A stretch of DNA of 64,000 bases from an uncultured Candidatus Berkelbacteria bacterium. GTDB lineage: Bacteria > Patescibacteriota > UBA1384 > UBA12157. The DNA is taken from the NCBI GenBank assembly GCA_903877885.1, contig CAIRFN010000009.1, positions 8,218 to 72,217 on the forward strand. The letters run 5' to 3'. The translations under genes and the position numbers were made by a program. The notes beneath the pieces were generated by a model. That model saw only the letters and a list, made by a program, of their open reading frames with translations. It did no database searches and was not told where the DNA came from. Every line of letters begins with the position of its first letter. Position 1 is the stretch's first letter. This document shows positions 29,833 through 62,023 of the stretch, one piece after another.

Positions 29833-29852
29833 ACCCTGGAAGTTACCTTCTG
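29833..29852 (+). repeat. Dispersed intergenic repeat copy 1 (core ACCCTGGAAGTTACCTTCTG).
   Basis: Same core at 45846..45866, 61386..61406 and 62003..62023, all in plus orientation. Confidence 0.6.
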
Positions 29853-29937
29853 ATTAAAATAGAACAAAAAATACAAATTATACAAAAATAGTATCTTTTT
29901 TAGTAGATACTATTTTATGTGAATAAAAGTTTTGGAT

Positions 29938-30141
29938 TTAGTTCTTAATTTCTTTTTCTTTGGAAATGACGTAAATGTAAAGAATTTCTAAAATACCAAC
30001 AGTATTAACCACGAACATAATAACAAACCAGACCAAATCCTTCTTGCCGCCGGCCCTCCAGAGGGCTATACCTTTCCAAATCATAGACCAAATCATCGCT
30101 AAGACGAACAGTGACATCATCCCGGGATTAAATGGATACAT
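29938..30141 (-). CDS. Small two-TM membrane protein.
   Basis: 67 aa, two hydrophobic helices. Downstream of the 30154 membrane-protein gene. Confidence 0.4.
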   Translation of the reverse strand: MYPFNPGMMSLFVLAMIWSMIWKGIALWRAGGKKDLVWFVIMFVVNTVGILEILYIYVISKEKEIKN

Positions 30142-30153
30142 TTTACTCCTTTC

Positions 30154-31161
30154 CTAAATATTTTTATTAAAACCTGGTGGAATAATTTCTGGTTCGCGCT
30201 CGGGGATAAAAAAAGAAATAATGACAAGCAGTAGTCCGATGCCAAAACAAATACCCATCGTTTGAGTAAAGCTACTCGTGAATATCTCTACCAAACCACT
30301 TATAATTGGGTAGACAAATTGGCTGACAAGATTATTCATACCGGGGAAATGTGACAAAATAATATTCAAGCCGTCAAAATAAAACAGGCTAAAACAAATC
30401 GTCAAAAGACTGGTGCCTAAGAGGATCGACAAGCCAATCCAGCGAAAAATTGAACGCCAGTCAGGCGTACCCAAGGCGATTAATGACAATGCTGTTCCCA
30501 GCAAGCCCAAGAGTGAAGCCCAGAAAATAAGATTCAACCAAGAATAGTCTTTTTGTAACTGGCTAAAAGACGTTTTATTTTTATTAAAAAAATCATCAAG
30601 CTTAATCTGATCAGGAATATTCTTACTCAATTCGGTTGGATTAGTATTGGCAACAATAGTAGAGATTGCGCTAGACGTTAGATCATCGTGCTTACAATCA
30701 ATCGGTAAAGAATTATTCTGGACAAACTTTTCTTGTTGTTCAGTCGTGCAAGCTGGTAGTTGATCGTAGCTTTCACTGTAAATTTGCGGTGCAGTCGTTG
30801 ACCATTTGGCAACAAAATCAGCCTTGAATTTGGTTAAATCAATTAAAGCAGCCTGATCATATTTTTTTTGCGTTAGATAATTTTGAGTTGTTTTGATTGA
30901 ACTTTCAGTTTGAGCTTGAAGTTCGGCGGGATCTAGGCTTTGAACTAAAATCTTAATAAAGCCCGTATAACCTAAATCAGATTTGATCGTTTTCTGATCA
31001 ATTACCTGACTAGGTATTTTTTGATAGACCTGGGCTTTAGCTAAACTTTTAATAATAAAATCAGATTCTAACCAATATTTAGTCTGACCAGAGATTACAA
31101 ATAGACCAAAAAAGAGAACGAAAAAGAAAACGGCTATTCCAGCTAATGTTTTATAACGCAT
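30154..31161 (-). CDS. Integral membrane hypothetical protein.
   Basis: N-terminal signal/TM segment. Large periplasmic-like region. About four C-terminal TM helices. Confidence 0.5.
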   Translation of the reverse strand: MRYKTLAGIAVFFFVLFFGLFVISGQTKYWLESDFIIKSLAKAQVYQKIPSQVIDQKTIKSDLGYTGFIKILVQSLDPAELQAQTESSIKTTQNYLTQKKYDQAALIDLTKFKADFVAKWSTTAPQIYSESYDQLPACTTEQQEKFVQNNSLPIDCKHDDLTSSAISTIVANTNPTELSKNIPDQIKLDDFFNKNKTSFSQLQKDYSWLNLIFWASLLGLLGTALSLIALGTPDWRSIFRWIGLSILLGTSLLTICFSLFYFDGLNIILSHFPGMNNLVSQFVYPIISGLVEIFTSSFTQTMGICFGIGLLLVIISFFIPEREPEIIPPGFNKNI

Positions 31162-31185
31162 TTATAACCCCTCTAATTTATATAA

Positions 31186-33696
31186 TTACTCTTTAATTTT
31201 GCGCCGAGTTGTGGCTTTTGTAAAGATGATATTATGATCGGAAATTTTAATATTGATTGTATCTCCTGGTTCAAATTTATTATCAAGAATCTGTTCAGAC
31301 AGCGGACTTTCGATATAATCAGCAATCGCTCGTCGAATCGGCCTGGCACCAAACTCTGGTTCGTAGCCACGAATCACTATTTCCGCAATTACCTCTTTCG
31401 AAAATTTGATTTTATAGCCATGTTTATGTAATCGTTCAGCTAATTCTTCGAGATTTAAATTAGCAATTTCGATAATATTATCCATGCTTAATGGTTTAAA
31501 AACCACTGTTTTATCCAGTCGATTTAAAAACTCCGGGCGAAAGTTATCTTTAACTTTCTTTAAAACCTCGTGCTTCATTTTTTCATATTCATTAGCGCGG
31601 TCATCTTCAGCTTTTTTGGTCGTAAAGCCAATCGCCACTTGAGATTTTAATTCTTGCATCCCAATATTGCTGGTCAAAATAATGATTGTATTTTTGAAAC
31701 TCACCTTTCGACCACGACCATCAGTTAATTGACCATCTTCTAAAATCTGAAGTAAGAGATTAAAAACCTCGCGATCAGCTTTTTCAATCTCGTCAAAAAG
31801 AACGATGGAATATGGTTTTTGCCGTACTTCTTCAGTTAACTTTCCGGCATCCTCGTAACCAACATATCCTGGAGGCGCGCCAACAAGCCTGGAAACATTG
31901 TGGTGTTCCATAAATTCTGACATATCAATTTTGATTAAATTAGTACGCGAACCGAACAATTCTTCAGCCAAAACGCGAGAAAGTTCGGTTTTTCCCACTC
32001 CAGTTGGGCCGAGAAATAGAAACGAACCAATTGGCCGATTTGGATCAGATAAACCAGTTTTAGATCGTTTGATGGCTGACGAAATCATTTCCACGGCTTC
32101 ATCTTGACCAATAATTTTCTTTTTTAAATTTTCCGCCAATTTGGCATATTTTTCTTTTTCTTCAATTTTCAAGCTTTCCACTGGAATATTTGTCCAGAGT
32201 GCTAAAACTTTGGCAATATCTTCTCGCGTAATTTCATCTTTAAGAATAGGTTTAGCTTTTTGCAAAACTTGAAGTTCTTCTTCTAAACGGATTTCCAAAG
32301 TCCGTAAATGAGCCGCTTTGGCGAAATTTTCGACTTCGACTTCTTTTTCTTTTTCCAACTTAACCTGATCTAATTGTTTTTGAATTAACTGACGTTGCAA
32401 TTCACCTTTATCTTCATGTTTGATCTGCCAGGCTGAAGCAGCTTCATCAATCAAATCGATTGCCTTATCAGGTAAAAATCGATCGTTAATGTAGCGAACT
32501 GAAAATTCCACTGCTGCTTTTACTGCATCGTCAGAGATTTTCACCCCGTGATGAGCTTCGAAAGCTGGTTTGATGCCTTTGAGAATCTGAACAGTTTCTT
32601 CTTCACTTGGCTCGTTGACCGTAACTTTTTGTAAACGTCGTTCGAGCGCTGAATCTTTTTCAATAAATTTGCGGTATTCGTTAAAAGTCGTTGCCCCAAC
32701 TAATCTTAATTTGCCTTTGCTTAAGGCTGGCTTCAAAATATTGGCAACATCTAATGAACCTTCAGCTGTACCAGCACCAATAATAGTATGAATTTCGTCG
32801 ATAAATAAAATCACATTGCCACGATTAATAATTTCGTCGAGAACTTTTTTGATTCTGTCTTCAAACTGACCGCGATACATTGTTCCAGCAATCAAAAGCG
32901 CCAAATCCAGCATAATCACTTGTTTGTTTAAAAATTTGCCCGGGACATTACCTTCAACAATTCGACGAGCCAAACCTTCAACAATCGCGGTTTTACCGAC
33001 CCCTGGTTCGCCAACTAAAACAGGATTATTCTTAGTTCTTCGACCCAAAATTTGGGTCACACGTTCAATTTCGTGATCGCGGCCAACTACTGGATCAATT
33101 TTCCCTTGTTTAGCTAGTTCCGTTAAATCAGTGGTAAAACTTTCGACATTAACCTTGCTCGCACCTGGAAACATCGGCATTTCAGTTGGCATTTGATTTG
33201 GCGGCATTTGAAAATTGAAAGGCAGATCGCCAATAGCTTTTGGATTATCTTCTAAATCTTCCATTTCTTCAAAAAACCCGCGAATCTGATCAATAATTTG
33301 ATTCGGATCTGAACCAATTCGATCAACCACCTCGGTTGCATGAAATTTTTCTTCGGAAATAATCCCAGCTAATAAATGCTCGGTGTCAATTTGATTATGA
33401 CCATATTCGGCCGCTACTTCAGCCGCCGCTTTGAGTGCGTCTTTGGCTTCAGCGGTCATGCCTGGCGCTGGTTCTTTGGTAAAATGTTGCAACGAAACAA
33501 TCAGTCTAATCTGATCTAGACCAACCATTTGTTCTCGCAAAATACTTTGAGCCAAAGTTTTAGGTGTAATTGCCAGAGCCAACAAAATGTGTTCACTGCC
33601 CAAGGCAGTCCCCATTTGACCGGCAATTTTCTGAGCCGAAATTAAAATTTTGCGAGCGTTTTGGGAAAACTTATCAAAAATCTCATGATCACTCAT
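31186..33696 (-). CDS. clpC: Clp/Hsp100 ATPase ClpC-like (Clp_N repeats, two AAA+ modules, IGF loop).
   Basis: Walker A motifs GEPGVGKT and GPTGVGKT. Clp_N repeats. AIGF motif. Confidence 0.9.
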   Translation of the reverse strand: MSDHEIFDKFSQNARKILISAQKIAGQMGTALGSEHILLALAITPKTLAQSILREQMVGLDQIRLIVSLQHFTKEPAPGMTAEAKDALKAAAEVAAEYGHNQIDTEHLLAGIISEEKFHATEVVDRIGSDPNQIIDQIRGFFEEMEDLEDNPKAIGDLPFNFQMPPNQMPTEMPMFPGASKVNVESFTTDLTELAKQGKIDPVVGRDHEIERVTQILGRRTKNNPVLVGEPGVGKTAIVEGLARRIVEGNVPGKFLNKQVIMLDLALLIAGTMYRGQFEDRIKKVLDEIINRGNVILFIDEIHTIIGAGTAEGSLDVANILKPALSKGKLRLVGATTFNEYRKFIEKDSALERRLQKVTVNEPSEEETVQILKGIKPAFEAHHGVKISDDAVKAAVEFSVRYINDRFLPDKAIDLIDEAASAWQIKHEDKGELQRQLIQKQLDQVKLEKEKEVEVENFAKAAHLRTLEIRLEEELQVLQKAKPILKDEITREDIAKVLALWTNIPVESLKIEEKEKYAKLAENLKKKIIGQDEAVEMISSAIKRSKTGLSDPNRPIGSFLFLGPTGVGKTELSRVLAEELFGSRTNLIKIDMSEFMEHHNVSRLVGAPPGYVGYEDAGKLTEEVRQKPYSIVLFDEIEKADREVFNLLLQILEDGQLTDGRGRKVSFKNTIIILTSNIGMQELKSQVAIGFTTKKAEDDRANEYEKMKHEVLKKVKDNFRPEFLNRLDKTVVFKPLSMDNIIEIANLNLEELAERLHKHGYKIKFSKEVIAEIVIRGYEPEFGARPIRRAIADYIESPLSEQILDNKFEPGDTINIKISDHNIIFTKATTRRKIKE

Positions 33697-33733
33697 ATAT
33701 ATTCAATCCAATTCTAAAATTTAAATCAACAAT

Positions 33734-34969: not shown

Positions 34970-35126
34970 GATTTTTAGTCTCCTGTATGTAAAGAACGCT
35001 TTACATTTCTTAATTTAATTTTATTATTTTTGTAGTTGCATGTCAATAATTAAATTGGCAACAAAAAAAGTAGGTTATCCATAACCTACTTCACTAGTAC
35101 TATTATATAGCAATTTTTTTGTCTTG

Positions 35127-35840: not shown

Positions 35841-35880
35841 TGGAATTAGTATACCTTAAAATAGTATTTTTATCAATCGA

Positions 35881-35925
35881 TTCCTAACCGTTCCATACAC
35901 CTCGTAGGTGTATCAATTGGTTTGC
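35881..35925 (+). repeat. REP-like element copy a (TTCCATACACCT-cgt-AGGTGTATCAATTGG hairpin with conserved flanks).
   Basis: 8-bp stem ATACACCT/AGGTGTAT with loop CGT. Same element at 36811..36855 (same orientation) and 37532..37570 (inverted). Confidence 0.65.
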
Positions 35926-35965
35926 TAATCGAGAAATAAAAAAACCTCCCGTAAGGAAGGTTGTA

Positions 35966-36727
35966 CTAATAATGATATAATTCTAGCGGGACTGGAAAAT
36001 TACCAGTCAAATATGCGACAACGGCTCGAGCATGGAGTTCAAATAATTCTGACTCAGTTACATCAATTTGCCAATACTTCGATTTGTCATTGATAACAAT
36101 ATTGTAAGTTGGGAATGAGTTATATCCGTTATACATTGAATCTAGCACTGAAAAGTTGCAAAGATTATTTGTACCCAGATAATAATATTTTGACTTTTGA
36201 TGAAAAAGTCTAAAGCCTAATGATGTATGTAGCCAGAAATTGTCAAAATATGTTTTTTGCAAACTTTCAATTGTTGAATCTTCGTAAATCGCAATTGATG
36301 TGCAAGCAGTAAGAAAAACAACAGCTAACTCGTGAATTTGACTTTCAATATTTATCAGCATTAGTTCTCTAATATTTACACTGAAAATATTATGAAAGTC
36401 ATTATCCGTTTCGGCGCATTCAAATTTAATTAAACTCGGTTGACTGAATTCATAGGGCTTTTGTTTTTTAACTAAACCGCCCAATAAATTGGAAATCATC
36501 TGTAAATTATTTTTTAAAGCCTGGTTTTTGTCATCAACATCAGCTAAATACAAAAAGTATTTTTTAACTTCATTAGGCGGCATTCGATTAAAATGCTTGT
36601 AGTCAGTCTTGGGTATCTCAATTGAAATACCAGGACAAATAATTAGATAAGAATTTTCCAATTCTAAAGTCAGACGATAATAATTGGCGTTTTTAACAAC
36701 GCATTTTGCATAATCACGCAAATCCAT
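35966..36727 (-). CDS. Hypothetical protein lying between two direct REP-like copies next to the RAYT.
   Basis: 253-aa ORF. Own terminator-like hairpin ccttcc-ttac-gggagg plus U6 on the minus strand (35936-35960). No recognisable domain. Confidence 0.5.
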   Translation of the reverse strand: MDLRDYAKCVVKNANYYRLTLELENSYLIICPGISIEIPKTDYKHFNRMPPNEVKKYFLYLADVDDKNQALKNNLQMISNLLGGLVKKQKPYEFSQPSLIKFECAETDNDFHNIFSVNIRELMLINIESQIHELAVVFLTACTSIAIYEDSTIESLQKTYFDNFWLHTSLGFRLFHQKSKYYYLGTNNLCNFSVLDSMYNGYNSFPTYNIVINDKSKYWQIDVTESELFELHARAVVAYLTGNFPVPLELYHY

Positions 36728-36810
36728 CAGAATTCTCCTTTGTTCAGGTTCTGGTGATATTTTAACATAGAATAATTAAATTGTAAACCAGTAAATACTA
36801 TATTCCCCAA

Positions 36811-36855
36811 TTTCTAACCCTTCCATCCACCTCGTAGGTGTATCAATAGGTTAGA
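36811..36855 (+). repeat. REP-like element copy b; overlaps the RAYT stop codon.
   Basis: tttctaacccttccatccacctcgtaggtgtatcaatagg. Confidence 0.65.
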
Positions 36856-37514
36856 TAATCAAGTAAAATCTTTTTAATAATTTTTAGTTCACGTTGATAA
36901 GAAATTCGGTCATCAACAAAATCCTTATATTTTTCTGGTGCAAAATCCATTAAATTATCTAAATTACAAATTTTTCGAGTATATGGCATAATATATTCAT
37001 TATATGACGAGTATTCATAATCTTCTGGTTTATCGACCAAATTGGCCGTGACAGGGTTTAGATGGATATATCGCGTCGTGTGCAACAATTGTTCATCATC
37101 TTCGATATGCTTGTTTTTAAACCGACTTTCCCAAAGAGGACCAATTCTATCGTGTTTAATATTAAAATACCGGCTATAACTATTCAGAACCTTAGACATG
37201 AAATTGGAAATTCCGCCATCTTCAAGTTGCTGTAGTACTAAATGAATATGAGTGGGCATAATACAAAATGCAATGATATCAACCGATCGGTTGCCATTTC
37301 TATGTAATTCATTAATAATTCTTGTTTGAGTCGAAATTGCTAATCGCTTAAACATATGATATTTATAGCAAAAATCCTTGTATTGAAAAAGATTCAGCAT
37401 TTCAACCAATCTTAAATAGTCATAATCATTATTAAATATAATGTACTTAGCGATACTTCGAGTAAAAATATGGTAGCATTCATTAGTTCTTAATGGATCT
37501 GTTCTGTATTGCAT
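36843..37514 (-). CDS. REP-associated tyrosine transposase (RAYT / TnpA_REP, IS200-like Y1 HuH enzyme).
   Basis: Conserved CYHIFTRSI block. HuH motif IMPTHIHLVLQ. Catalytic-Tyr motif TRYIHLNPVTANLV. Flanked by inverted REP-like hairpins. RBS GGAGGGG. Confidence 0.7.
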   Translation of the reverse strand: MQYRTDPLRTNECYHIFTRSIAKYIIFNNDYDYLRLVEMLNLFQYKDFCYKYHMFKRLAISTQTRIINELHRNGNRSVDIIAFCIMPTHIHLVLQQLEDGGISNFMSKVLNSYSRYFNIKHDRIGPLWESRFKNKHIEDDEQLLHTTRYIHLNPVTANLVDKPEDYEYSSYNEYIMPYTRKICNLDNLMDFAPEKYKDFVDDRISYQRELKIIKKILLDYLTY

Positions 37515-37531
37515 TTCCCCTCCTTATCCAA

Positions 37532-37570
37532 CCAATTGATACACCTACGAGGTGTATGGAAAGGTTAAGA
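37532..37570 (-). repeat. REP-like element copy c, inverted relative to copies a and b and immediately upstream of the RAYT start.
   Basis: ccaattgatacacctacgaggtgtatggaaaggttaaga. Reverse complement matches copies a and b including flanks. Confidence 0.65.
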
Positions 37571-37591
37571 AAAAACCACCAATGATGGTGG
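37569..37591 (-). terminator. Rho-independent terminator (CCACCA-tcat-TGGTGG plus U6 on the minus strand) after the Cys-rich gene.
   Basis: Same hairpin family as the terminators at 10565 and 12155. Confidence 0.55.
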
Positions 37592-37608
37592 AGTTTTCTG
37601 TGGACGAA

Positions 37609-38333: not shown

Positions 38334-38347
38334 TAAACCTTTGCTTA

Positions 38348-45163: not shown

Positions 45164-45805
45164 ATGAGCAATCGGAACCATTACGTTGATTTTGAAAAAT
45201 TTGGCAAATTAGCCAAAGTATTGAGCGATCACCTAAACTATCTTCAGAATCATTGTTCAGAAATTGATTTTCCGGCTGAAAAATGGAAGGTTGTAAAATT
45301 GTTTAAATTACGACCAATGACGCCGGAATCGGATACACGTTTTATTTTTTCTTTTGCCATGCGTGTCGCATTAAGCTATTCGCCGGAGAAAATTCAACGA
45401 ATCATCAATCAAATCGCCAAGTATCACTCGATTCTTGCCGATCATCATTTTGGTAAGGGTGAGTACATTGAGCGAATCAAACCAATTGGACCGCGTATCG
45501 ACAGGATCTTGGATAATAAATATCTCCAGATTTTTAAAACTAAAATGAATCCTTGGAGTCCTAGCTGGAATAACGAGAGCTATGAATATCATTACCAAAT
45601 GATTGCCATCTCGATTATATTCAGAGGCGAAACATATGTTTTGTGTGATGGCCCAGATTACAGTGATGGTACTCGTTGGGAAACTCTCGAATACGTTGGC
45701 CTTAATCCGCAACACATTTCCTGGCAATTCGCTCATAATTTTGAACAGATCGAAAAAACCAAAAACAATCGAAACAAAGCAAACTTTAAATTAACATTTT
45801 TTTAG
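45164..45805 (+). CDS. Hypothetical protein.
   Basis: RBS GGAGGG. Followed by terminator agctgaaat-tatcat-atttcagct plus T6 (45803-45835). Confidence 0.45.
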   Translation: MSNRNHYVDFEKFGKLAKVLSDHLNYLQNHCSEIDFPAEKWKVVKLFKLRPMTPESDTRFIFSFAMRVALSYSPEKIQRIINQIAKYHSILADHHFGKGEYIERIKPIGPRIDRILDNKYLQIFKTKMNPWSPSWNNESYEYHYQMIAISIIFRGETYVLCDGPDYSDGTRWETLEYVGLNPQHISWQFAHNFEQIEKTKNNRNKANFKLTFF

Positions 45806-45838
45806 CTGAAATTATCATATTTCAGCTTTTTTATATCT

Positions 45839-45884
45839 AAATACAACCCTGGAAGTTACCTTCTGGTTTAAATCGGAAGTTTTT
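45839..45884 (+). repeat. Dispersed intergenic repeat copy 2 (AATACAACCCTGGAAGTTACCTTCTGGTTTAAATCGGAAGTTTTT).
   Basis: About 45-bp near-identity with the copy at 61378..61425. Confidence 0.6.
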
Positions 45885-45916
45885 AAAAAAGACCAACAAC
45901 TGTTGTTCTTTTTTTG

Positions 45917-46046
45917 GACCTGGCGAGAAACTTTATGACGCAACGCGTCTGGTTACCTGAAGGCGGACTCGAGCGTTATAAATATAATTTGGACCTGGCG
46001 AGAAGCTATAACCTAAAGGCGGACTCGCGCGTTATCAATATAATTT
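45917..46046. repeat. Two tandem direct repeats (about 74 bp and 56 bp) abutting the 3' end of tRNA-Ala. Each begins TGGACCT, identical to the tRNA 3' acceptor end, and ends GGCGGACTCG[AC]GCGTTAT[AC]AATATAATT.
   Basis: Read directly. Repeat 1 equals repeat 2 plus an about 18-nt insertion containing hairpin GACGC-aac-GCGTC. Repeat 2 also contains ACCTAAAG, identical to the tRNA T-arm junction. Confidence 0.6.
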
Positions 46047-46119
46047 TGGACCTAAAGAGATTCGAACTCTCTACCTCTTCAATGCGAATGAAGCGCTCTA
46101 CCAACTGAGCTATAGGCCC
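46047..46119 (-). tRNA. tRNA-Ala (anticodon CGC); CCA not encoded.
   Basis: Minus-strand sequence GGGCCTATAGCTCAGTTGGTAGAGCGCTTCATTCGCATTGAAGAGGTAGAGAGTTCGAATCTCTTTAGGTCCA. Cloverleaf with G3:U70. Anticodon loop TTCGCAT. Confidence 0.8.
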
Positions 46120-46266
46120 AAAATTATATCGACAATGCGAATGTGGTGTTGTGCCACTTAACCACAGGCCCAGATATATCTTTACAACCCCATCTTACCA
46201 CTTTCTTCCCTTGAATTCAATTAAGAAATCGATTATAATAGTATTAAGGTAATTGGATTATCATTT

Positions 46267-46352: not shown

Positions 46353-46365
46353 AATTTGATTCTGG

Positions 46366-46405
46366 ATTCCAGATCCTGCTTTCAGCCGGTCTGGAATGAC
46401 AAAAG
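46366..46405 (+). repeat. About 40-bp element GATTCCAGATCCTGCTT[TC]CAGCCGGTCTGGAATGACAAA, second copy at 5888..5926; contains 7-bp inverted repeat TTCCAGA/TCTGGAA.
   Basis: 38 of 39 identity between the two copies. Here it lies between tRNA-Leu and the histidine-kinase start. The other copy lies between the HIT gene and rpsU. Confidence 0.55.
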
Positions 46406-50344: not shown

Positions 50345-51895
50345 TTGGGAGGGGTTTTGCGACCATTAGTTTTGGTAATTTTAGATGGCTGGGGTTTGAG
50401 TCCGGAAACCGAGGGAAATTCAATTTTGACTGTACCCACGCCAACGATGGATAAATTAATTTCCATGTACCCATTTGCCTCTTTACACGCTTCTGGCGAA
50501 GAAGTTGGTTTAAGTTGGGGTGAAATGGGAAACTCGGAAGTCGGCCATTTGAATTTGGGCACCGGCCGAGTCGTCATGCAAGATTTATCGCGCATCAATA
50601 AAACCGTTGATGACGGCACTTTCTTAAACAATACGATTTTACTCCAAACTTTCGATTACACTGAAACCCAAAATAAAAATTTACATTTGATTGGACTCTT
50701 TTCCGCCGGCGGCGTTCATTCGCACATGGACCATCTTTTTTCTTTGCTAAAAATGGCCAAACTTAAAAATTTCACTCGAGTTTTTATTCATTTAATTAGC
50801 GATGGTCGAGATACGGCGCCAAAAGTTATTTTACAAGATTTAACTAAATTAAATAAATTAATTGCCGAACTAAAAATCGGTCAAATTTCCTCGGTCATGG
50901 GTCGGTTTTATGGCATGGATCGCGACAAACATTGGGAACGAACTGATTTGGCTTACAATTGTTTAATCGGTAAAAATACACCGGAAGCCGCCACTGCCGA
51001 GGAAGCCATCAATCAAGCCTACCAAAAAAACCTGACCGACGAATTTATTGTGCCAACAATGATTACTGGTGGTGGTCGAGTTGCGGCTGGTGATGCCGTT
51101 ATTTTCTACAATTTCCGTGCAGATAGGTCTAAACAATTATCGCAGAAACTGATTGAATCTGACGATCTTTATTTTACTTCTTTCACTAGTTACGGTTATG
51201 AACCAACGCCTAAAGTTAAAGTGGCTTTTTTAACGCCAAAAATTAGTAATCAGTTGAGTATGATTTTGGAAAAAAATAGTTTTAGCCAATTGCATATGGC
51301 GGAAACCGAAAAATACGCTCACGTGACTTACTTTTTCAATGGTGGTTGGGAAAATCCTTTTGATAATGAAAAAAGGATTCTTGTTCCCTCGCCTCGAGTT
51401 GAAACTTACGATTTAAAGCCGGAGATGTCGGCTACTGAACTAACCGATAAGTTTATTCAAGCTTTTAAAACAGATAAACCTGGCTTTACGGTTTTAAATT
51501 ATGCCAATGCGGATATGGTCGGCCATACCGGAAATTTTGCGGCCGCTCAATTAGCGATTAAAACTGTTGATGAAAATTTGGGTCGATTAGCTACGGCGGT
51601 TTTTGACGCTGGCGCCGATTTAATTGTCACCGCTGATCACGGTAATGCTGAACAGATGATTAATCCCCAAACTCATGAGGTTGACAAAGAACATACCACT
51701 AATCCCGTACCCTTGATTTTAGGTTTTCAAGATCATGCACACACTAGTCTTTTACCGAGTTTAGAAACAAAAATTGCTTGGTCAGTTCAACCGCCAATTG
51801 GCGTGTTAGCTGATGTCGCCGCCTCAATTCTTAAACGGATTCAATTAAATCAACCAGCCGAAGTCACCGGTCAAAGTTTAACGGAGGTAATGTGA
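50345..51895 (+). CDS. gpmI: 2,3-bisphosphoglycerate-independent phosphoglycerate mutase, copy 1.
   Basis: ILDGWG, MGNSEVGHLN, SDGRDT, ADMVGHTGN, TADHGNAEQM motifs. Confidence 0.85.
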   Translation: MGGVLRPLVLVILDGWGLSPETEGNSILTVPTPTMDKLISMYPFASLHASGEEVGLSWGEMGNSEVGHLNLGTGRVVMQDLSRINKTVDDGTFLNNTILLQTFDYTETQNKNLHLIGLFSAGGVHSHMDHLFSLLKMAKLKNFTRVFIHLISDGRDTAPKVILQDLTKLNKLIAELKIGQISSVMGRFYGMDRDKHWERTDLAYNCLIGKNTPEAATAEEAINQAYQKNLTDEFIVPTMITGGGRVAAGDAVIFYNFRADRSKQLSQKLIESDDLYFTSFTSYGYEPTPKVKVAFLTPKISNQLSMILEKNSFSQLHMAETEKYAHVTYFFNGGWENPFDNEKRILVPSPRVETYDLKPEMSATELTDKFIQAFKTDKPGFTVLNYANADMVGHTGNFAAAQLAIKTVDENLGRLATAVFDAGADLIVTADHGNAEQMINPQTHEVDKEHTTNPVPLILGFQDHAHTSLLPSLETKIAWSVQPPIGVLADVAASILKRIQLNQPAEVTGQSLTEVM

Positions 51896-53460
51896 ACGAA
51901 ACTCAAGAAAAAGTTATTTTACTGATTATGGATGGTTGGGGCTTGGCGCCAGCCTGGGGTGGCAATGCGATTGAAATGGCTCAAACCCCAAATATCGATC
52001 AGCTCTGGCGTAAGTATCCGCATACCGAACTTAAAGCGGCCGAGGAAGCCGTCGGCTTGCCAATTCATGAAATGGGAAACTCGGAAGTCGGCCATTTAAA
52101 TTTAGGTTCTGGCCAGATTGCTTTCCAAAACTTAACTGGCATAAATTCGATGATTGACGACGGTACATTTAGCAAAAATGAGATTTTAATTAACGCTTGC
52201 AACCATGTCAAAAAAAATAATTCCTGTTTAAATCTTTTAGGTCTTGTCTCTGATGGTGGCATTCATTCGCATATCAATCATCTTTTTGCTTTATTAAAAT
52301 TAGCTAAAGACCAAGGTGTAACCAGTGTTCAAATTCATATGATTACTGACGGCCGCGACACTGATCCGATGAGCGCCTACAATTATGTTGCCAGTTTAAA
52401 AAGTAAAATTGCGGAATTAGGCTTAGGCAAAATTGTGACGATTATGGGTCGATATTTTGCCATGGACCGCGACAAACATTGGGATCGAATTAAATTGGCT
52501 TATGATTGTATGGTTAAAGCCGTGGCGCCAGTGGCCGAAAGCGCGGAAATAGCGATTGCGGAAAACTACCGCCAAAATCATACTGATGAATTTATCACAC
52601 CGACCATTATTCAGACTAAACAAGATCCTTTTAAACCAATTTCCGATAACGACGCGATTATATTTTTCAATTTCCGGGCTGATCGAGTCAGAGAAATTAC
52701 TGACGCTTTGGCGGGAACTAATTTCCGCGGTTTTGAACAGAAAAAATTTCAGAATTTATATTTTGCTACTTTTTCCTTTTTGGAAGAATATGCTCAAAGT
52801 ACTAATATCAAACCTGTTTTTCAAAGTCGCGATATTAAATTTCCTTTAGCGCGAGTTTTGTCTGACGCCGGTCTAACTCAATTTCATATTGCTGAAACGG
52901 AAAAATACGCCCATGTTACTTTCTTTTTTAACGGCGGTACCGAAACACTTTTCCCGGGCGAAGTCCATTTTCTGGTTCAATCACCAAAGGTGCCAACTTT
53001 TGATTTAAAACCGGAAATGTCTGCGCCAGAAATTACCAAAAAAGTGATTGATGATTTTTCTAAATATGATTTTACAGTTTGTAACTTTGCCAACGCTGAT
53101 ATGGTTGGCCACACTGGCAATATTAAAGCCACGATTGCCGCTTGTGAGGCTGTGGATAAGTGCGTTGGTGAAGTAGTTAAGACAGCCTTAAGTAAAAACG
53201 CCACTGTGATGATTACGGCTGACCATGGCAATGCTGAACAAAAACTTAATCCTAATAATGGCGAAGCCTATACGGAACACACCACTAATTTAGTGCCATT
53301 TATTTTATGTTCCAACAATCCTAAATTTGAGCGCCCCTTGCGCAATTCCGGCGGTAAATTCGGACCGGTTTTGTCTGATGTGGCGCCAACGATTTTAGAT
53401 ATTTTTAAGATTCAAAAACCAGAGGAAATGACTGGCACAAGTTTAATTATCAATGCCTAG
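51892..53460 (+). CDS. gpmI: iPGM paralog, copy 2 (4-nt overlap with copy 1).
   Basis: IMDGWG, MGNSEVGHLN, TDGRDT, ADMVGHTGN, TADHGNAEQK motifs all intact. Confidence 0.85.
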   Translation: MNETQEKVILLIMDGWGLAPAWGGNAIEMAQTPNIDQLWRKYPHTELKAAEEAVGLPIHEMGNSEVGHLNLGSGQIAFQNLTGINSMIDDGTFSKNEILINACNHVKKNNSCLNLLGLVSDGGIHSHINHLFALLKLAKDQGVTSVQIHMITDGRDTDPMSAYNYVASLKSKIAELGLGKIVTIMGRYFAMDRDKHWDRIKLAYDCMVKAVAPVAESAEIAIAENYRQNHTDEFITPTIIQTKQDPFKPISDNDAIIFFNFRADRVREITDALAGTNFRGFEQKKFQNLYFATFSFLEEYAQSTNIKPVFQSRDIKFPLARVLSDAGLTQFHIAETEKYAHVTFFFNGGTETLFPGEVHFLVQSPKVPTFDLKPEMSAPEITKKVIDDFSKYDFTVCNFANADMVGHTGNIKATIAACEAVDKCVGEVVKTALSKNATVMITADHGNAEQKLNPNNGEAYTEHTTNLVPFILCSNNPKFERPLRNSGGKFGPVLSDVAPTILDIFKIQKPEEMTGTSLIINA

Positions 53461-53487
53461 CGATGTTCGCCAAAATGAAAGGAAAAA

Positions 53488-55086
53488 ATGCAATTTAGAC
53501 CAATCGTATTAATTATTCTCGACGGCTGGGGTTTGTCACCATCCTGGGGCGGCAATGCTCTAACCATGAATAATCCGAAAAATATCGATAATTTGTGGCG
53601 AAATTACCCACATAAGGTTTTGCAAGCTTTGAGTACTATTGTCACTGACGAAATTGTTGGCGATTCCAGATTGGGCCACACTTTAATCGGCGCCGGCAGA
53701 CCGATAAAAAGTAACTTTGCGATTATTTCCGAATCAATCAAAAAGCGCGATTTTTACCGAAACGATACTTTGCTTGGCGCCATCAACTGGGCTAAGAAAA
53801 ATAATTCAAATTTGCATTTGATGGGACTGGTTTCTGATGGCGGCGTCCACGCCCACATTAATCACCTTTTAGGTTTATTACAGTTGGCTCATGAAAAAAA
53901 CTTTGATCGGGTTTTTATTGATATGATTTGTGACGGCACTGATTCGGCCGCGACTGATGCTTTGCGTTATATTGAAAAAATTGAAAATAAGATCGAAGAA
54001 TTAGGTATTGGTAAATTTAGCTCGATTGGCGGCCGTCATTTTGCCATGGATCGCGACAAACATTGGGAACGAATCAGTAATTATTATAAAACTCTGACTG
54101 GTAAAGGAAACATTATTTATCCTTCGATTCGCAAAGCAGTGACGACTAATTATACCAATGGTCTGAATGATGAATTTATTAAACCAGGCCTAATTGCCGA
54201 TGAGAGTAAAAAGGTTTATCCAATTAAAGAAAACGATGCTGTGATTTTCTTTAATTTTCGTGAGGATCGCGCTCGCGAGTTAACTCAAGTTTTTGTTGAT
54301 TCCAAATTTAGAAATGGTCTTTGGAAACCCAAAAAAATCGATGATTTGTATTTTGCCACTTTTATTAATTATCGAAAAGACTTGCCGGCCAAGGTCGTTT
54401 TTCCCGATATGAATTATTCAAATACGCTTTCGGAAACTATTTCTAAAAATTATTTTAAACAACTGAAGGTAGCGGAATCGCAAAAAGCCGCTCACGTTTC
54501 TTATTTCTTCAATGGCGGAACCGAGGAACCATTTGTCGGTGAAAATCAAAAAATTATTCCATCACTTGATATTACTTCGTATGATCAACGCCCAGAAATG
54601 TCGGCCGAGGCTATTTGCGAAACTGTCATCAAGGCAATTAATAACAAACATCACGAATTAATCGTAGTTAATTTTGCCAATGTGGATATGGTAGCGCACA
54701 CCGGCAATATTGTGGCTACCGGTCAGGCTGTTCAAGTTCTTGATCGGTTAGTTAAAAAAATCGTCGACGAAAACTTAAAAAACAATGGCGCAACCATTAT
54801 TACGGCCGACCATGGTAATGCTGAACAAATGGTTCAGTTAAAACAAAGCTTAGTTGGTGAAAAAGAATCGCTCCACACCTTAAACCCCGTGCCTTTTATT
54901 TTAGTCACACCAAAAAATCAAAAACATTTATTCCACAGCGCGATTGGCCATAGCGCTAATTCGCTCGGGAAAATTATGACTGCCAAGAGCACTTTGGCTG
55001 ATGTCGCCCCAACCATTTTGGAATTAATGGGTATTGGCAAACCAAAAGAAATGACCGGTCATTCATTATTAAATAAACTGGAGTAA
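53488..55086 (+). CDS. iPGM paralog, copy 3, the most diverged (MGNSEVGH becomes VGDSRLGH; DGRD becomes DGTD).
   Basis: ILDGWG, VDMVAHTGN, TADHGNAEQM retained. Substrate-phosphate-binding Arg of the DGRD motif replaced by Thr. Confidence 0.75.
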   Translation: MQFRPIVLIILDGWGLSPSWGGNALTMNNPKNIDNLWRNYPHKVLQALSTIVTDEIVGDSRLGHTLIGAGRPIKSNFAIISESIKKRDFYRNDTLLGAINWAKKNNSNLHLMGLVSDGGVHAHINHLLGLLQLAHEKNFDRVFIDMICDGTDSAATDALRYIEKIENKIEELGIGKFSSIGGRHFAMDRDKHWERISNYYKTLTGKGNIIYPSIRKAVTTNYTNGLNDEFIKPGLIADESKKVYPIKENDAVIFFNFREDRARELTQVFVDSKFRNGLWKPKKIDDLYFATFINYRKDLPAKVVFPDMNYSNTLSETISKNYFKQLKVAESQKAAHVSYFFNGGTEEPFVGENQKIIPSLDITSYDQRPEMSAEAICETVIKAINNKHHELIVVNFANVDMVAHTGNIVATGQAVQVLDRLVKKIVDENLKNNGATIITADHGNAEQMVQLKQSLVGEKESLHTLNPVPFILVTPKNQKHLFHSAIGHSANSLGKIMTAKSTLADVAPTILELMGIGKPKEMTGHSLLNKLE

Positions 55087-55090
55087 GATT

Positions 55091-57070: not shown

Positions 57071-57096
57071 ATGATATAAGAAAGCCGAAGGATATT

Positions 57097-58161
57097 ATGA
57101 AAAAAGAATTTTTAACTGGCAATGAAGCGGTGGTTCGCGGCGCGTTGGCCGCTGGCGCAAAGATGCTGACTGGCTATCCAATCACTCCAACCACCGAAAT
57201 AATGCATTATTGGTCAAGAGAACAAGCCGACCCGATGAACTTAGATCGCGGAATTAAATTTCTGCAAACCGAAGATGAAATGGCGGCTGGTTTTGCCATG
57301 ATCGGCGGCGTTCTAGCTGGCGTCAAAGCATATACTGCCACGGCCGGCCCGGGAAATGTCTTAATGCAAGACGCTTTTTCCATGGCTGAAAACTTACGAC
57401 TGCCAACTGTCGCCTTTATCAACCAGCGGGGTGGGCCTTCAACTGGCACAGTCATTTATAGTCAACAAGAAGTTAATTTAACTTGTTTTGGCGGCAATGG
57501 CGAAGGTTTGCGCATTGTTTATTCGGCCAGCTCTGTTCAGGAAATGTTTGATTTTGCCATTCGCGCCTTTAATACTGCCTGGAAATATCGCTTTCCGACT
57601 TTTGTTTTGTCTGACGGCTACACGGCTAAAACCGAAATCGAAATTGAAACATATGAACCAAAAGAAAAAAATATTGATTTGATTGATATCAAACCTTATC
57701 TTTGTGGTAATACTTCTCAAAATTCGGTTAATATTCGAAATTGCTATAATTTAGAAACTGAATTAAACGAAATTGTCACCGCCAACAAACATGCCTTTGA
57801 CGCGATTAAAGCCGAAATTGTCGATTTTGAAGATTATAAAACTGAAGATGCCGATATTATAATTATGGCTCATGGCATTGTCGGCGCCGCCGCTAAAATG
57901 GCTGTCAATCTTTTGCGCGATGATAATATCAAAGCCGGCCTATTTCGACCAATTACCTTAAATCCGTTTCCAGCTGAAGCGGCAAAACAGGCCGCGGAAA
58001 ACGTAAAAGCCATTCTGATTGCCGAATCTTCTTTGGGCCAGTTTGAAAGTATGGTAAAAAATAATTTGTATGGGCAGACTGTGCCGATTGAGGCGCTACT
58101 ATCACCAGCCAAAGGTATTAGCGTTGAAGAAATCGTAGCTAAAGTTAAGGAGATGATATGA
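57097..58161 (+). CDS. porA: 2-oxoacid:ferredoxin oxidoreductase (pyruvate/2-ketoisovalerate type) alpha subunit.
   Basis: GNEAVVRGALAAGAKMLTGYPITPTTEI N-terminal signature. Confidence 0.8.
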   Translation: MKKEFLTGNEAVVRGALAAGAKMLTGYPITPTTEIMHYWSREQADPMNLDRGIKFLQTEDEMAAGFAMIGGVLAGVKAYTATAGPGNVLMQDAFSMAENLRLPTVAFINQRGGPSTGTVIYSQQEVNLTCFGGNGEGLRIVYSASSVQEMFDFAIRAFNTAWKYRFPTFVLSDGYTAKTEIEIETYEPKEKNIDLIDIKPYLCGNTSQNSVNIRNCYNLETELNEIVTANKHAFDAIKAEIVDFEDYKTEDADIIIMAHGIVGAAAKMAVNLLRDDNIKAGLFRPITLNPFPAEAAKQAAENVKAILIAESSLGQFESMVKNNLYGQTVPIEALLSPAKGISVEEIVAKVKEMI

Positions 58162-58889
58162 CCGAACCAGTTTTTCCTAAATCCTGGAAAAAAGAAAGCA
58201 AACCGCATAAATTCTGCCCTGGCTGCGGCCAAGCTTTAGCCTTAAAAATTCTAGGCTATGCCATTGACGAATTAGATATCGCTAAAAAATTGGTCTATGG
58301 TTGCGACATTGGTTGCTCGCTTTTAACCTGGGATATGTTTAATGTCGATACGATTCAAACCCATCACGGCCGAGTTATTCCAACAATGGTTGGTTTTAAA
58401 TTAGCCAAGCCAGAAGCGATTACGATTGCCTTTTTGGGTGACGGTGGTGGTTATGCTATCGGTGCGCAACATTTGGTTAATGCCGCCATGCGTAATGATA
58501 AAATTACTGTAATCTTGATCAATAATGCCAATTATGCCATGACCGGCGGCCAACTAGCACCAACGACTTTAGTTGGTCAGAAAACCGATACCACGCCTAA
58601 TGGCCGCGATGAAGCAGTTTTTGGTAATCCGATTCACGGCCCAGAAATGATTGCCGCCATTGCCGCACCCGGCGCTTACATCGCCCGAACCACATCGAAT
58701 AATTTTGAAGATTGCAAAGATAAAATCAAAAAAGCCTTGCAAAATCAGATTGATGGCAAGGGCTTTAGTTTTGTGGAAATTTTGAGCATGTGTCCGGTTA
58801 ACTGGAAAACAAATACGGTTGAATCACTCGAGTATGTGGATAAAAACATGGCCAATATTTTTCCACTGGGAGAAATAAAAAATGATTAA
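58158..58889 (+). CDS. porB: 2-oxoacid:ferredoxin oxidoreductase beta subunit (TPP-binding).
   Basis: FCPGCGQ...GCS Cys motif. TPP motif FLGDGGGYAIGAQHLVNA...NNANYAMTGGQ. Confidence 0.85.
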   Translation: MTEPVFPKSWKKESKPHKFCPGCGQALALKILGYAIDELDIAKKLVYGCDIGCSLLTWDMFNVDTIQTHHGRVIPTMVGFKLAKPEAITIAFLGDGGGYAIGAQHLVNAAMRNDKITVILINNANYAMTGGQLAPTTLVGQKTDTTPNGRDEAVFGNPIHGPEMIAAIAAPGAYIARTTSNNFEDCKDKIKKALQNQIDGKGFSFVEILSMCPVNWKTNTVESLEYVDKNMANIFPLGEIKND

Positions 58890-59700
58890 AATATTATTAG
58901 CTGGCGAAGGCGGCCAAGGCGTTCAAACCGTAGCCAAGATTATCACTGAAGCGGCTCAAGCTAGAAATGAAAAAACCAGTTTTATTCCGTCGTTTGGTGT
59001 CGAGCAACGCGGCGGAGTAAGTCTTGCTTACATTCAAATCGCCGAGGAAAATATTCCTTATCCTCGCTTTGAAACAGCCGATATTATTGTCGCTTTTTGT
59101 AACCGCGCTATTAAAGCAATCGAAAATTATATTACCGATCAGACGATTTTTATTTATGATAGTTCAGCTATCAGTGACGACTTTCTTGAGCCGATAAAAT
59201 CCAAGGTAAAAATCCATATTGGCATTCCAGCTCAAAAAATCGCTAAAGAAAAATATTCAACCAAAATTTTGAATATGATTTTGCTGGGAGCGCTCGCCCA
59301 TCAATTAAAATTTAATCTTGAAGAAGTTAAATCAGCCACTCACAAAACCTTGGGCGATAAGTTTAAAACCGAAGAAGTCGAAAAAATGAACCTGGATGCA
59401 CTAGCCGAAGGCCTGACGCTATCCGAGAATTTTGATTCTAAATCCGAATTTGTCGGTAGTGGAAAACCGGAAATTAAACTGGAATTTTCTGATGACAAGA
59501 AAACTTGGACTAGATTTCCCGAGCATTGCAAAGGCTGCGGCCTCTGTGTTTTTCGTTGTCCAGTCAAAGCCATTCAATTTAAAAAAGAAGTTGGTTTTTT
59601 GGGCAATCCCCTGCCAGAAGTTGATATTGAAAAATGCATCGCCTGCGGTATGTGTCAGCGAACATGTCCAGATGGAGCGATAAGACTGGAAAAGAAATAA
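58882..59700 (+). CDS. porGD: Fused gamma-delta subunit of 2-oxoacid:ferredoxin oxidoreductase (PorG domain plus 2x[4Fe-4S] ferredoxin).
   Basis: N-terminal LLAGEGGQGVQT (gamma). C-terminal CKGCGLCVFRCP and CIACGMCQRTCP (two ferredoxin-type clusters). Confidence 0.8.
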   Translation: MIKILLAGEGGQGVQTVAKIITEAAQARNEKTSFIPSFGVEQRGGVSLAYIQIAEENIPYPRFETADIIVAFCNRAIKAIENYITDQTIFIYDSSAISDDFLEPIKSKVKIHIGIPAQKIAKEKYSTKILNMILLGALAHQLKFNLEEVKSATHKTLGDKFKTEEVEKMNLDALAEGLTLSENFDSKSEFVGSGKPEIKLEFSDDKKTWTRFPEHCKGCGLCVFRCPVKAIQFKKEVGFLGNPLPEVDIEKCIACGMCQRTCPDGAIRLEKK

Positions 59701-60623
59701 TGGATAAACTAAAAATCGGTTTAATTTATGGCGGCGCTTCGCCAGAACATGAAGTTTCAATTTCAACGGCTAAATCAATTCGCGAAAATATCGATCGCGA
59801 TAGATTTGATGTTGTGGATATTTTTATTGATAAAGACGGCAAATTAAATGAAAACCTTTTAGATAATATCGATGTCGCTTTTCTAGCTGTTCATGGACCA
59901 AATTGTGAAGATGGAAAACTGCAACAATATCTCGAAGATCGAAAAATCAAATATACAGGTTCAGGCGTTAAGGCAAGCCAAATTAATATGGATAAGATTT
60001 TAATGCACGATGCTTTTAAAGCTGCTGGATTGCCAGTCGTCGAATACAAAGGTTTTGATAAAAATAATATCGATCATATAAAAAATTATGTCGAGGAAAT
60101 TGATTGTCCAGTTTTTATCAAACCAAACAATGGCGGTTCGTCAATTGGTATGACAAAAGTTGATTCAATCGACGACCTTGAAAAGGCCATTCAAGAAGCA
60201 TTTAAATTTGATGACAAAATTATAGTTGAGAAAGCGGTTGTAAAACCAAGAGAAATCGAACTGGCTGTTTTAGGCAACAATGATTTGATTATTTCCGAGC
60301 CAGGCGAAATTAATTACCAAGAAGAATTTTATGATTACAATGCTAAATATTTTAATCAAGATACCAGTGTTTTGTTTGACACTTTAGATGAAAATATGAA
60401 TAAAAAGATAAAAGAAATGACATCAAAAGCATATTTAGGTACTGGTTGCAAAGGATACGCCAGAGTAGATTTTCTGATTGATAAAAACGAAAATATTTTT
60501 ATTAATGAAATAAATACACTTCCAGGATGCACAGCAACAAGCATGTTTCCGAAATTAATGGCCAAAAGCGGTATTGGTTACAAAGAGCTCATTTCTCGAA
60601 TAATAAATCTCGCGCTCGAATAA
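59701..60623 (+). CDS. ddl: D-alanine--D-alanine ligase. Start set at the ATG immediately after the por stop; the track ORF starts at 59634 inside porGD.
   Basis: KIGLIYGGASPEHEVSISTAKSI N-terminus. ATP-grasp motifs. Confidence 0.85.
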
Positions 60624-60625
60624 AA

Positions 60626-61243
60626 TTATTCTTTATTTTCGGATTTGAATTTAGGTACTAAACTTTTATAATGTTCGGGATTATTATCGCCTCTAAAAGT
60701 TAGAAAATGCAGATGATCTCTATCTGTCCAACCGGTTTTTCCAGTTGTAGCGATAACTTGACCTTCCTTAACTTTTTTATTGGTTAGAATTTCTTGTGGA
60801 ATAGAATTTTTGGCTAAGTGAGCATATTGTGTAAATTCTACCGTGCCATCTTCGTTTGTATGCCTAATTGTCAAATAATTTAGTTCATCGGCAAAGTCTG
60901 AACTCGGACCCCATTTCTCATGACTGACATCGTAGGCTACGATTAAACCATCTCGTGATGCTAAAACAGGTGTCCCGTCAGGCACTAAAAAATCGATTGC
61001 TTGTTTTTGTACTCCCTGATGCGATTCCGGGCTTCGTGATATTATGAACGGTCCAATCTTTTCTGTAACTTGTTCTGGCGGATCTTGATCAGCAATTTGT
61101 TGACCAAGATCTGTCGCATTTTCAATAATTGGGATCGGAAAGCTGTAATCGCCTTTGGCGACTTCCCCATCTTCTAATGGATCGATTAACTCTGCGTGTT
61201 CAATATTATTTCCGGTTGGTTTTAATGGTTCTGACATATTCAC
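60626..61243 (-). CDS. M23-family peptidase (LytM domain).
   Basis: DFLVPDGTPVLASRDGLIV block. Zinc-ligand block GKTGWTDRDHLHFLTFR. Confidence 0.75.
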   Translation of the reverse strand: MNMSEPLKPTGNNIEHAELIDPLEDGEVAKGDYSFPIPIIENATDLGQQIADQDPPEQVTEKIGPFIISRSPESHQGVQKQAIDFLVPDGTPVLASRDGLIVAYDVSHEKWGPSSDFADELNYLTIRHTNEDGTVEFTQYAHLAKNSIPQEILTNKKVKEGQVIATTGKTGWTDRDHLHFLTFRGDNNPEHYKSLVPKFKSENKE

Positions 61244-61377
61244 CTCATTTATTATCTTTATTCAAAGTTTTCTTTAACCACTCGTCAAATTCATTTTCTT
61301 TTCTTTTATTTTCCGCCATGATTTTGGCGATTTGTTGATTTTGAGAGATCAAACCTTGCTCGCCCACCATTGACTCA

Positions 61378-61425
61378 ACAATACAACCCTGGAAGTTACC
61401 TTCTGGTTTAATTCGAAAGTTTTTG
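61378..61425 (+). repeat. Dispersed intergenic repeat copy 3.
   Basis: caacaatacaaccctggaagttaccttctggtttaattcgaaagttttt. Confidence 0.6.
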
Positions 61426-61430
61426 TTATT

Positions 61431-61931
61431 TTACCAAACTTTAATTTTGTAATCCTCAATTTTTTGGTCTTTGGTAAACGCAAATTCAGCGCGGACGATT
61501 TTATTGGCTAAAACATGCGGTAGCCAAATCCAATCATCAGCCCACATTTTTGCAAATGGCAATTTAGTTTTATTAAACCATTTTGGCTTCATTTCTTCAG
61601 TTTCAATGGGTTTTCCATCCCAACTTTCGGCAATGTAAACCAAGACTTGTTGATTCCAATCTTCCTTTAAATCGACATGTGGAAAGTAAAAATCCAATAC
61701 CGCGACTTTCTTTGGCTTAAGTATTTTAACGCCGATTTCCTCTTCGACCTCACGAATCGCACACTTTAAAATCGATTCATCTTTTTCCGGCTTACCACCA
61801 ACTCCATTAAACCGATCTTTACCAAAACCCCGCTTTTTCATAGCCAGCAAAATCTTATCGTCTTTAACCAGAAAACAAAGTGTAGTCTGTCGCAACGGTT
61901 TTTCAATTTTATTTTTAAATTCATTTATCAT
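61431..61931 (-). CDS. NUDIX hydrolase (MutT-like), flanked by two copies of the dispersed 45-bp repeat.
   Basis: Nudix box GGKPEKDESILKCAIREVEEEIGV. Confidence 0.8.
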   Translation of the reverse strand: MINEFKNKIEKPLRQTTLCFLVKDDKILLAMKKRGFGKDRFNGVGGKPEKDESILKCAIREVEEEIGVKILKPKKVAVLDFYFPHVDLKEDWNQQVLVYIAESWDGKPIETEEMKPKWFNKTKLPFAKMWADDWIWLPHVLANKIVRAEFAFTKDQKIEDYKIKVW

Positions 61932-62002
61932 AATTCTAGTTTAATATTATCTACGCTTTTTTGCAAAATATCGTCTCATTTAGCAATCATCCCCACAGCC
62001 CT

Positions 62003-62023
62003 ACCCTGGAAGTTACCTTCTGG
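62003..62023 (+). repeat. Dispersed intergenic repeat copy 4 (CTACCCTGGAAGTTACCTTCTGG).
   Basis: Core identical. Flank CTACC shared with copy 1. Confidence 0.6.

Follow-up and report, generated by a model that had tools for sequence, protein, structure and literature searches.

A short dispersed intergenic repeat with an invariant 20-bp core, tentatively linked to mobile DNA, in a Berkelbacteria-like bacterium

The 64,000-nt stretch of contig CAIRFN010000009.1 analysed here, referred to throughout as the window, carries four copies of a short repeat that lie exclusively between genes and share an invariant 20-nt core. The reading that we favour, at a probability of roughly 0.4, is that this is a young, lineage-specific, non-autonomous DNA repeat that may have spread by or with mobile DNA, and that its core may be a protein recognition sequence. 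The 21-mer ACCCTGGAAGTTACCTTCTGG is found at positions 29833, 45846, 61386 and 62003, on the plus strand each time, with copy 1 carrying one mismatch (its last base is A); the 20-nt core ACCCTGGAAGTTACCTTCTG is identical in 4/4 copies, and the flanks are divergent. The chance expectation for the 21-mer, estimated from 100 dinucleotide-preserving shuffles, is 0, and the four positions agree with those in a preliminary description of this DNA made from the sequence alone. Identical copies are also present in independent assemblies from several samples and assemblers, which excludes an assembly artefact.

A repeat finder delimited a 45-nt unit at 29827-29871, 45840-45884, 61380-61424 and 61997-62041. 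Copies 2 and 3, described earlier as sharing about 45 bp, are 96% identical over these 45 nt and share an exact run of 32 nt, while copies 3 and 4 are identical over 21/21 core positions in direct orientation. Pairwise BLAST of the four loci revealed no shared sequence beyond the repeat itself; the right arm of copy 3 (61410-61432) matches copy 4 at 62039-62060 with 87% identity, and copy 4 contains an internal 12-nt duplication (AAATTGAAGTCT / AAATTGAAAGTT). From these sharing limits and the duplication in copy 4 we conclude that the repeat unit is 45-55 nt long with sharp boundaries. Scanning both strands of the window with up to 6 mismatches allowed detected no decayed copies, the next best match having more than 6, and a nucleotide profile of the four copies (nhmmer) found nothing further at E<1. 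A search of the window for partial copies or complementary targets returned only AT-rich low-complexity k-mers. Logan k=31 contigs stop exactly within copies 2 and 3, as a 32-nt exact repeat would lead one to expect, and the repeat explains why contigs of this organism recurrently break in k=31 assemblies.

The core is an imperfect 7-bp dyad, CTGGAAG-TTAC-CTTCTGG. When the four copies are compared in the 45-nt register, variable positions number 0/20 in the core and 19/25 in the flanks. Restricting the comparison to the 34 clearly homologous nucleotides of copies 1-3, a conservative set, gives 0/20 variable positions in the core against 4/14 in the rest (P=0.02), a test that is post hoc since the core was defined by its invariance. 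Conservation also reaches past the core, to a C at -2 and to T22, A25, A26 and T28, giving a block of approximately 30 bp. Inspection of the copies showed no consistent -10/-35 or -12/-24 pattern, and readings of the motif as a sigma-54, extracytoplasmic function (ECF) or sigma-70 promoter were rejected on the ground that no elements are consistent across copies. It is also unlike the dif consensus sequences known to us, and a dif/Xer site was likewise rejected. The minus strand of the motif can be read as (F/I)KPEGNFQG, at copy 3 in frame with both the NUDIX gene and a 41-aa open reading frame (ORF). A coding relic was rejected: at copies 1 and 4 the motif is directly adjoined by stop codons, copy 2 has a stop at its end, and a six-frame peptide query found no protein sharing three 5-mers among 5.8 billion.

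According to gene tables built from exact-protein look-ups, the window is 92% genic, and 4/4 copies fall within the remaining 7.8% (P ~4e-5 under random placement). The earlier statement that all copies are intergenic and on the plus strand was therefore correct; the shared orientation has P=0.125 when taken alone. Copy 1 (29827..29871; core 29833-29853) lies between the intrinsic terminator of an ankyrin gene (29784..29806, plus strand), which ends 20 nt upstream of it, and an AT-rich hairpin plus U-run that terminates the DUF5652 operon from the other side (29882..29920, minus strand; -13 kcal/mol, z=-3.9); that copy 1 follows the ankyrin terminator had been noted in the preliminary description. 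Copy 2, the reference copy (45840..45884; core 45846-45866), begins 6 nt beyond the terminator of a 213-aa gene (45804..45833, plus strand) and abuts at its right end the terminator hairpin that closes a tRNA-Ala array (45885..45914, minus strand; -9.4 kcal/mol, z=-2.1); its position ahead of the tandem tRNA-Ala fragments had also been recognised. Copy 3 (61380..61432; core 61386-61406) takes up the 60-nt gap that separates the stop codon of NUDIX from the 41-aa ORF preceding an M23 peptidase gene. Copy 4 (61997..62060; core 62003-62023) lies between the NUDIX start and the terminator of the upstream, 78-aa gene (62081..62098, minus strand), which is 20 nt to its right. Since copies 1 and 2 are enclosed by convergent terminators, little transcription would be expected to enter these pockets from either strand, which favours a role at the DNA level rather than the RNA level. 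A pocket of this kind is a classic neutral landing site.

The host is a Berkelbacteria-like bacterium of the Candidate Phyla Radiation (CPR). Its FtsZ clusters at 90% identity or above with a protein from a Candidatus Berkelbacteria metagenome-assembled genome, the best ClpB matches are 75-77% identical, one of them named Berkelbacteria, and no relative of the M23 peptidase exceeds 54%. An exact 18-mer of the motif has no homologues among 185,579 GTDB species representatives, JGI metagenomes or IMG/VR, its database matches being scattered single chance hits in coding DNA of unrelated organisms. Neither nhmmer nor a scan allowing ≤6 mismatches found the motif in loci L042-L051 of distant and closer relatives, and nothing resembling it is present in 42 kb from the nearest relatives available, the syntenic region included. 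Two of these loci, L048 and L050, whose ClpB is 75% identical to that of the window, are collinear with it from WecG to peptidase S51. In both, the gap between the DUF5652 and rubrerythrin genes is 16-31 nt, whereas in the window the same genes are separated by a 1.1-kb block (28831..29937) that comprises a promoter region, the ankyrin gene (28972-29766, on the plus strand, opposite to its neighbours) with its plus-strand terminator, copy 1 and the minus-strand terminator. By inspection, the block also supplies a new rubrerythrin promoter, TTGATG-17-TATAAT. An ankyrin protein is encoded elsewhere in L048, but it is non-orthologous, with only 29% identity to that of the window. As both relatives lack the block as well as the motif, copy 1 is part of lineage-specific inserted DNA. 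A further lineage-specific insertion is a 335-aa ORF without a family match at 30154-31161, between ClpB and DUF5652, which is absent from both relatives and has no repeat at its borders.

Copies 3 and 4 bracket the NUDIX hydrolase gene as direct repeats, as first described. The gene (61431..61931; Pfam NUDIX, E=1.6e-15), which is on the minus strand, lies within a 617-bp unit between the two copies. The suggestion that it is a cassette is plausible but unproven: the direct repeats around a single gene speak for it and synteny lends it support. If the unit were to be excised, the junction predicted from the left flank of copy 3 and the right flank of copy 4 would read ...GACTCAACAATACA-ACCCTGGAAGTTACCTTCTGG-TCAAATTGAAGTC..., and the corresponding circle junction ...CCCCACAGCCCT-ACCCTGGAAGTTACCTTCTGG-TTTAATTCGAAAG.... 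The ankyrin and NUDIX genes show no compositional anomaly. Over 61245-61931 on the minus strand, the NUDIX ORF, its TAA stop, copy 3 and the 41-aa ORF are in one frame with no further stop, such that read-through of a single stop would yield a fusion protein; this is probably coincidence.

The surroundings of copies 2 and 4 carry probable marks of integration. In the tRNA-Ala(CGC) locus (45890-46180), the intact gene has a pseudo 5' half of the tRNA on its upstream side and, on its downstream side, two tandem ~56-nt units with tRNA-3'-like ends. Fragment arrays of this pattern are typical of repeated integration and excision, and the locus looks like an integration site that has been used repeatedly. 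To the right of copy 4 there is the 78-aa gene, a 371-aa gene and then a tRNA-3'-end-like fragment, GTTCGAGCCCCAGCGAGAACACACCACCA, on the minus strand at ~63997-64027, at which three Logan contigs break. A longer stretch (L038) reaching ~3.4 kb beyond the right end of the window contains, past this fragment, G-rich TTCGGGCG repeats, a Replic_Relax protein (34 bits), DUF3768 and, at the contig end, a reverse transcriptase. This stretch is probably an integrated plasmid-like island. Relatives of it were sought in IMG/VR and PLSDB as a check on plasmid or phage origin, and none were found; nor does the tRNA-Ala scar significantly resemble the edge of the island. The reverse transcriptase (LGNLTSQ...YADD) looks like that of a diversity-generating retroelement.

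Taken together, absence from relatives, location in non-coding pockets and the association with inserted or accessory DNA at each of the three loci agree with a young repeat linked to mobile DNA, and near-identical copies without intermediates fit recent spread rather than ancient conservation. On this reading, a sequence-specific transposase or recombinase with its gene elsewhere in the genome would recognise the ~30-bp block and, above all, the 20-bp core. Copies would come in together with freshly acquired intergenic DNA, or insert into it, within pockets that are transcriptionally silent, and recombination or co-insertion at a copy could leave a cargo gene between direct repeats, as for NUDIX. 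CPR bacteria (Patescibacteria) have tiny, gene-dense genomes (92% coding here) whose acquisition of accessory genes is poorly understood, and to our knowledge descriptions of dispersed repeats from this group are scarce. As a marker of three separate accessory-gene junctions, the motif would give a handle on gene acquisition; if it turns out to be no more than a relic in four copies, it is a species-specific repeat of the ordinary sort.

Several observations weigh against this reading. The preliminary description had raised a mobile or recombination-linked repeat, and the three accessory or variable loci, with copy 1 in DNA that two relatives lack, bear it out in part, but no recombinase is encoded nearby: the gene tables for the window plus flanks (~75 kb) contain no integrase or resolvase (Pfam) and no second transposase. 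The one transposase-like gene present, which resembles those of REP-associated tyrosine transposases (RAYTs), is flanked by a different palindrome with the centre CCTCGTAGG. [quoted passage not shown] The edge of the island to the right of copy 4 is the tRNA-3'-end-like fragment and not the motif, indicating that its attachment site is probably of the tRNA type and weakening the case for the motif in that role. The NUDIX locus, whose boundaries it had been recommended to compare between strains, has the same arrangement in every assembly; look-ups of the NUDIX, M23, 371-aa, 213-aa and 170-aa proteins always returned one arrangement without strain polymorphism, and ~15-19 contigs per locus, drawn from several samples, revealed no presence/absence polymorphism. 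Lastly, the number of copies examined is only four, and the contrast between core and flanks is partly an ascertainment effect, the core having been chosen as the invariant block.

Among known systems, the repeat is most like a repetitive extragenic palindromic (REP) sequence, a small MITE or an att-type repeat, yet it lacks the features that define each of them, and is best regarded as a new family among the short, dispersed, species-specific repeats of intergenic DNA, which form a broad class. REP sequences and their paired forms (REPINs) are short, extragenic, species-specific imperfect palindromes that favour gaps between convergent genes, and a RAYT-like gene is present in the window. With a 7-bp dyad and 4/4 intergenic copies the motif has the size and shape of such palindromes (~20-40 nt), although its stability equals that of shuffles and its hairpin is thermodynamically marginal. 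REP sequences carry a conserved 5' GT(A/G)G head right before the palindrome, and copies of that repeat stand on either side of the RAYT gene in inverted orientation (Nunvar et al., PMC2817692). In contrast, neither GTAG nor GTGG precedes the motif dyad on the plus strand, and on the minus strand GTAG occurs after the dyad in copies 1 and 4 only. REP and REPIN families further have high copy number and inverted pairs, whereas the motif is represented by four singletons of one orientation in ~75 kb. Like MITEs such as Correia, RUP and ERIC, the motif is a small, AT-flanked, non-coding repeat that is dispersed between genes and has no transposase of its own, but at 45-55 bp it is at or below the MITE size range.

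The identical 21-bp direct repeats around an inserted-looking NUDIX gene, and the proximity of copies both to a tRNA hot spot of integration and to a plasmid-like island, recall attachment (att) sites and cis-mobilizable elements (CIMEs). However, the flanks of copies 3 and 4 do not show a chimeric attL/attR pattern, and no single-core empty site exists at the copy-1 locus of L048 and L050, where the 16-31-nt gap contains no core. Integron attC sites likewise enclose single genes between imperfect palindromes of the same orientation and pair in a strand-specific manner, but inspection of the 45-nt element found no R''/R' core sites (RYYYAAC / GTTRRRY), IntI is lacking, and attC conserves structure rather than sequence, the opposite of the motif. 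There is a slim chance that the 20-bp core is the site of an undescribed CPR insertion system that loads single-gene cassettes (NUDIX, ankyrin) into terminator-insulated pockets. Such a system might reach an integron-like outcome without attC or IntI, by means of an HUH- or IS110-type enzyme encoded elsewhere.

The RAYT-like gene itself, which with its conserved flanking hairpins is a separate find from the motif, encodes a Y1 (HUH) transposase-like protein at 36843-37514 on the minus strand. It scores 74 bits against the NCBIfam model for REP-associated tyrosine transposases (REP_Tyr_transpos; cutoff 80), and E. coli TnpA-REP (4ER8) is its only relative in the PDB. On both sides the gene is flanked by 55-nt repeats in inverted orientation, which contain the hairpin ATACACCT-CGT-AGGTGTAT (region 35880-37571). 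An orthologue with 61% identity and flanking hairpins is syntenic in L048 (4927-5684) and L050 (2713-3448), and in both relatives the CCTCGTAGG centre of the hairpins is conserved and the stems covary. In the window, a 253-aa gene (35966-36727) that is absent from L048 stands between two copies of this hairpin repeat in direct orientation, the same architecture of a gene between direct repeats as is seen for NUDIX and, as a parallel in the same genome, a point in favour of the mobile-linked reading. The ...ATACACCTCGTAGGTGTAT... repeats around the RAYT-like gene and the motif share no sequence similarity, and the enzyme is therefore not assignable to the motif.

Of the alternatives to a mobile-linked repeat, the one that survives best, although we think it improbable, is that the copies are passive relics. 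They would represent a flank piece of DNA that was once integrated or duplicated, present in a few recent copies with no present function and identical merely through youth. That there are just four very similar copies, all beside accessory DNA or integration scars, is in keeping with this, and it would account for the failure to find either a cognate enzyme or population polymorphism. Less easily accommodated are flanks that diverge by 10-35% around a run of 20 core bases without a single change in 4/4 copies, and element boundaries that are sharp inside unrelated flanks.

It is unlikely that the motif is an operator, at which a regulator would bind the imperfect dyad and control adjacent minus-strand promoters (those of NUDIX and of the 41-aa ORF plus M23 peptidase). 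The core has weak dyad symmetry, copy 4 is 72-92 nt upstream of the NUDIX start codon and downstream of the preceding gene's terminator, and copy 3 is upstream of the 41-aa/M23 genes. Copies 1 and 2, however, between their convergent terminators, have no gene to control, the site is not conserved in relatives, and an asymmetric invariant block of 20-30 bp would be unusual for an operator.

Distinctly unlikely, too, is a genome-level recognition sequence, either a DNA-uptake sequence or a polar site for chromosome organisation or replication arrest (Ter/matS-like). Like uptake sequences (DUS/USS), the motif is a lineage-specific 'dialect' with an invariant core and lies near terminators, as they often do; and CPR bacteria depend on DNA uptake. 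Ter sites are asymmetric, ~23 bp long and orientation-fixed, and the motif is similarly intergenic, asymmetric in its core, of one orientation and clustered within 32 kb. However, DUS/USS cores are 9-12 nt, far exceeded by the 20-bp core here, and are found roughly once in every kb, on both strands and also within coding DNA, whereas the motif occurs four times in ~75 kb (~1 per 19 kb), only on the plus strand, never in coding DNA and nowhere in the other ~43 kb examined. No Tus/RTP-like factor or terminus signal was identified; GC skew tracks the coding strand, hence no terminus is evident, and the 4/4 orientation is not significant.

The preliminary description had also proposed that the core folds as an RNA hairpin in the plus-strand transcript, and a 7-bp stem with two G-U pairs can indeed be drawn. 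In addition, a terminator scan flags copy 2 (45860-45879, CTTCTGG..CGGAAG plus T5) and the core hairpin of copy 3, and segments 1:2 and 2:3 could form alternative pairings. These hairpins have energies equal to those of shuffles: plus-strand folds of the copies with their flanks range from -3.2 to -8.2 kcal/mol, with z-scores of -0.13, +0.36, -0.59 and +1.05 for the four copies, the predicted structures vary from copy to copy, and minus-strand folds are no better. As single-stranded DNA the 25-nt core gives -3.2 kcal/mol (z=-0.86). In contrast, z-scores are -2.1 and -3.9 for the terminators beside the copies and -3.9 to -4.9 for the hairpins flanking the RAYT-like gene. In Rfam covariance searches of the window only two tRNAs pass the gathering threshold, and over 61250-62150 no score is better than E=0.3. 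The downstream pairing is disrupted in copy 3 (C-G to C-A), and structure alone would not need 20 invariant bases. Read on the plus strand, copies 3 and 4 run antisense to genes, and strong terminators precede copies 1 and 2. A 'related' hairpin had been reported in the leader of a lytic transglycosylase gene; it exists, at 9006-9026, but has only the 7-mer CTTCTGG in common with the motif. Since fold energies match shuffles, Rfam gives no match and the leader hairpin shares only a 7-mer, the RNA-hairpin reading is not supported, and with neither thermodynamic nor covariation nor positional signal, an RNA-level element, be it a plus-strand hairpin, a weak terminator/attenuator or a small RNA, is very unlikely.

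The window contains 22 occurrences of the 7-mer CTTCTGG where 4 would be expected, probably owing to a favoured codon pair, CCA-GAA. In L050 the Dus and DUF5652 genes (7982-8001 and 12725-12744) both end in ...AAACCAGAAGTTTAA (KPEV*), 10 nt of which are identical to the minus strand of the motif, likely by chance or through a codon-pair effect. The leader hairpin belongs to a segment (8971-9054) with a consensus promoter, TTGACA-17-TATTAT, and a perfect 8-bp hairpin plus U6 (9006-9031) starting from ~+5, with which a second CTTCTGG at 9048 could pair alternatively; it looks like the leader terminator/attenuator of a cell-wall hydrolase operon.

A second dispersed 45-nt repeat is present at 5882-5926 and 46359-46403, the two copies being 96% identical and containing a TTCCAGA...TCTGGAA hairpin; one is located upstream of the gene for S21, and the other immediately follows tRNA-Leu. 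To the left of the window, a ribonucleotide reductase large-subunit gene (L026, 11335-15033) contains an intein with a LAGLIDADG endonuclease. Finally, three tandem paralogues of cofactor-independent phosphoglycerate mutase (iPGM), of ~520 aa each and 60-80% identical in DNA blocks, occupy 50345-55086 and adjoin the genes for enolase, phosphoglucose isomerase (PGI) and ADP-forming acetyl-CoA synthetase and a pyruvate:ferredoxin oxidoreductase (PFOR) operon.

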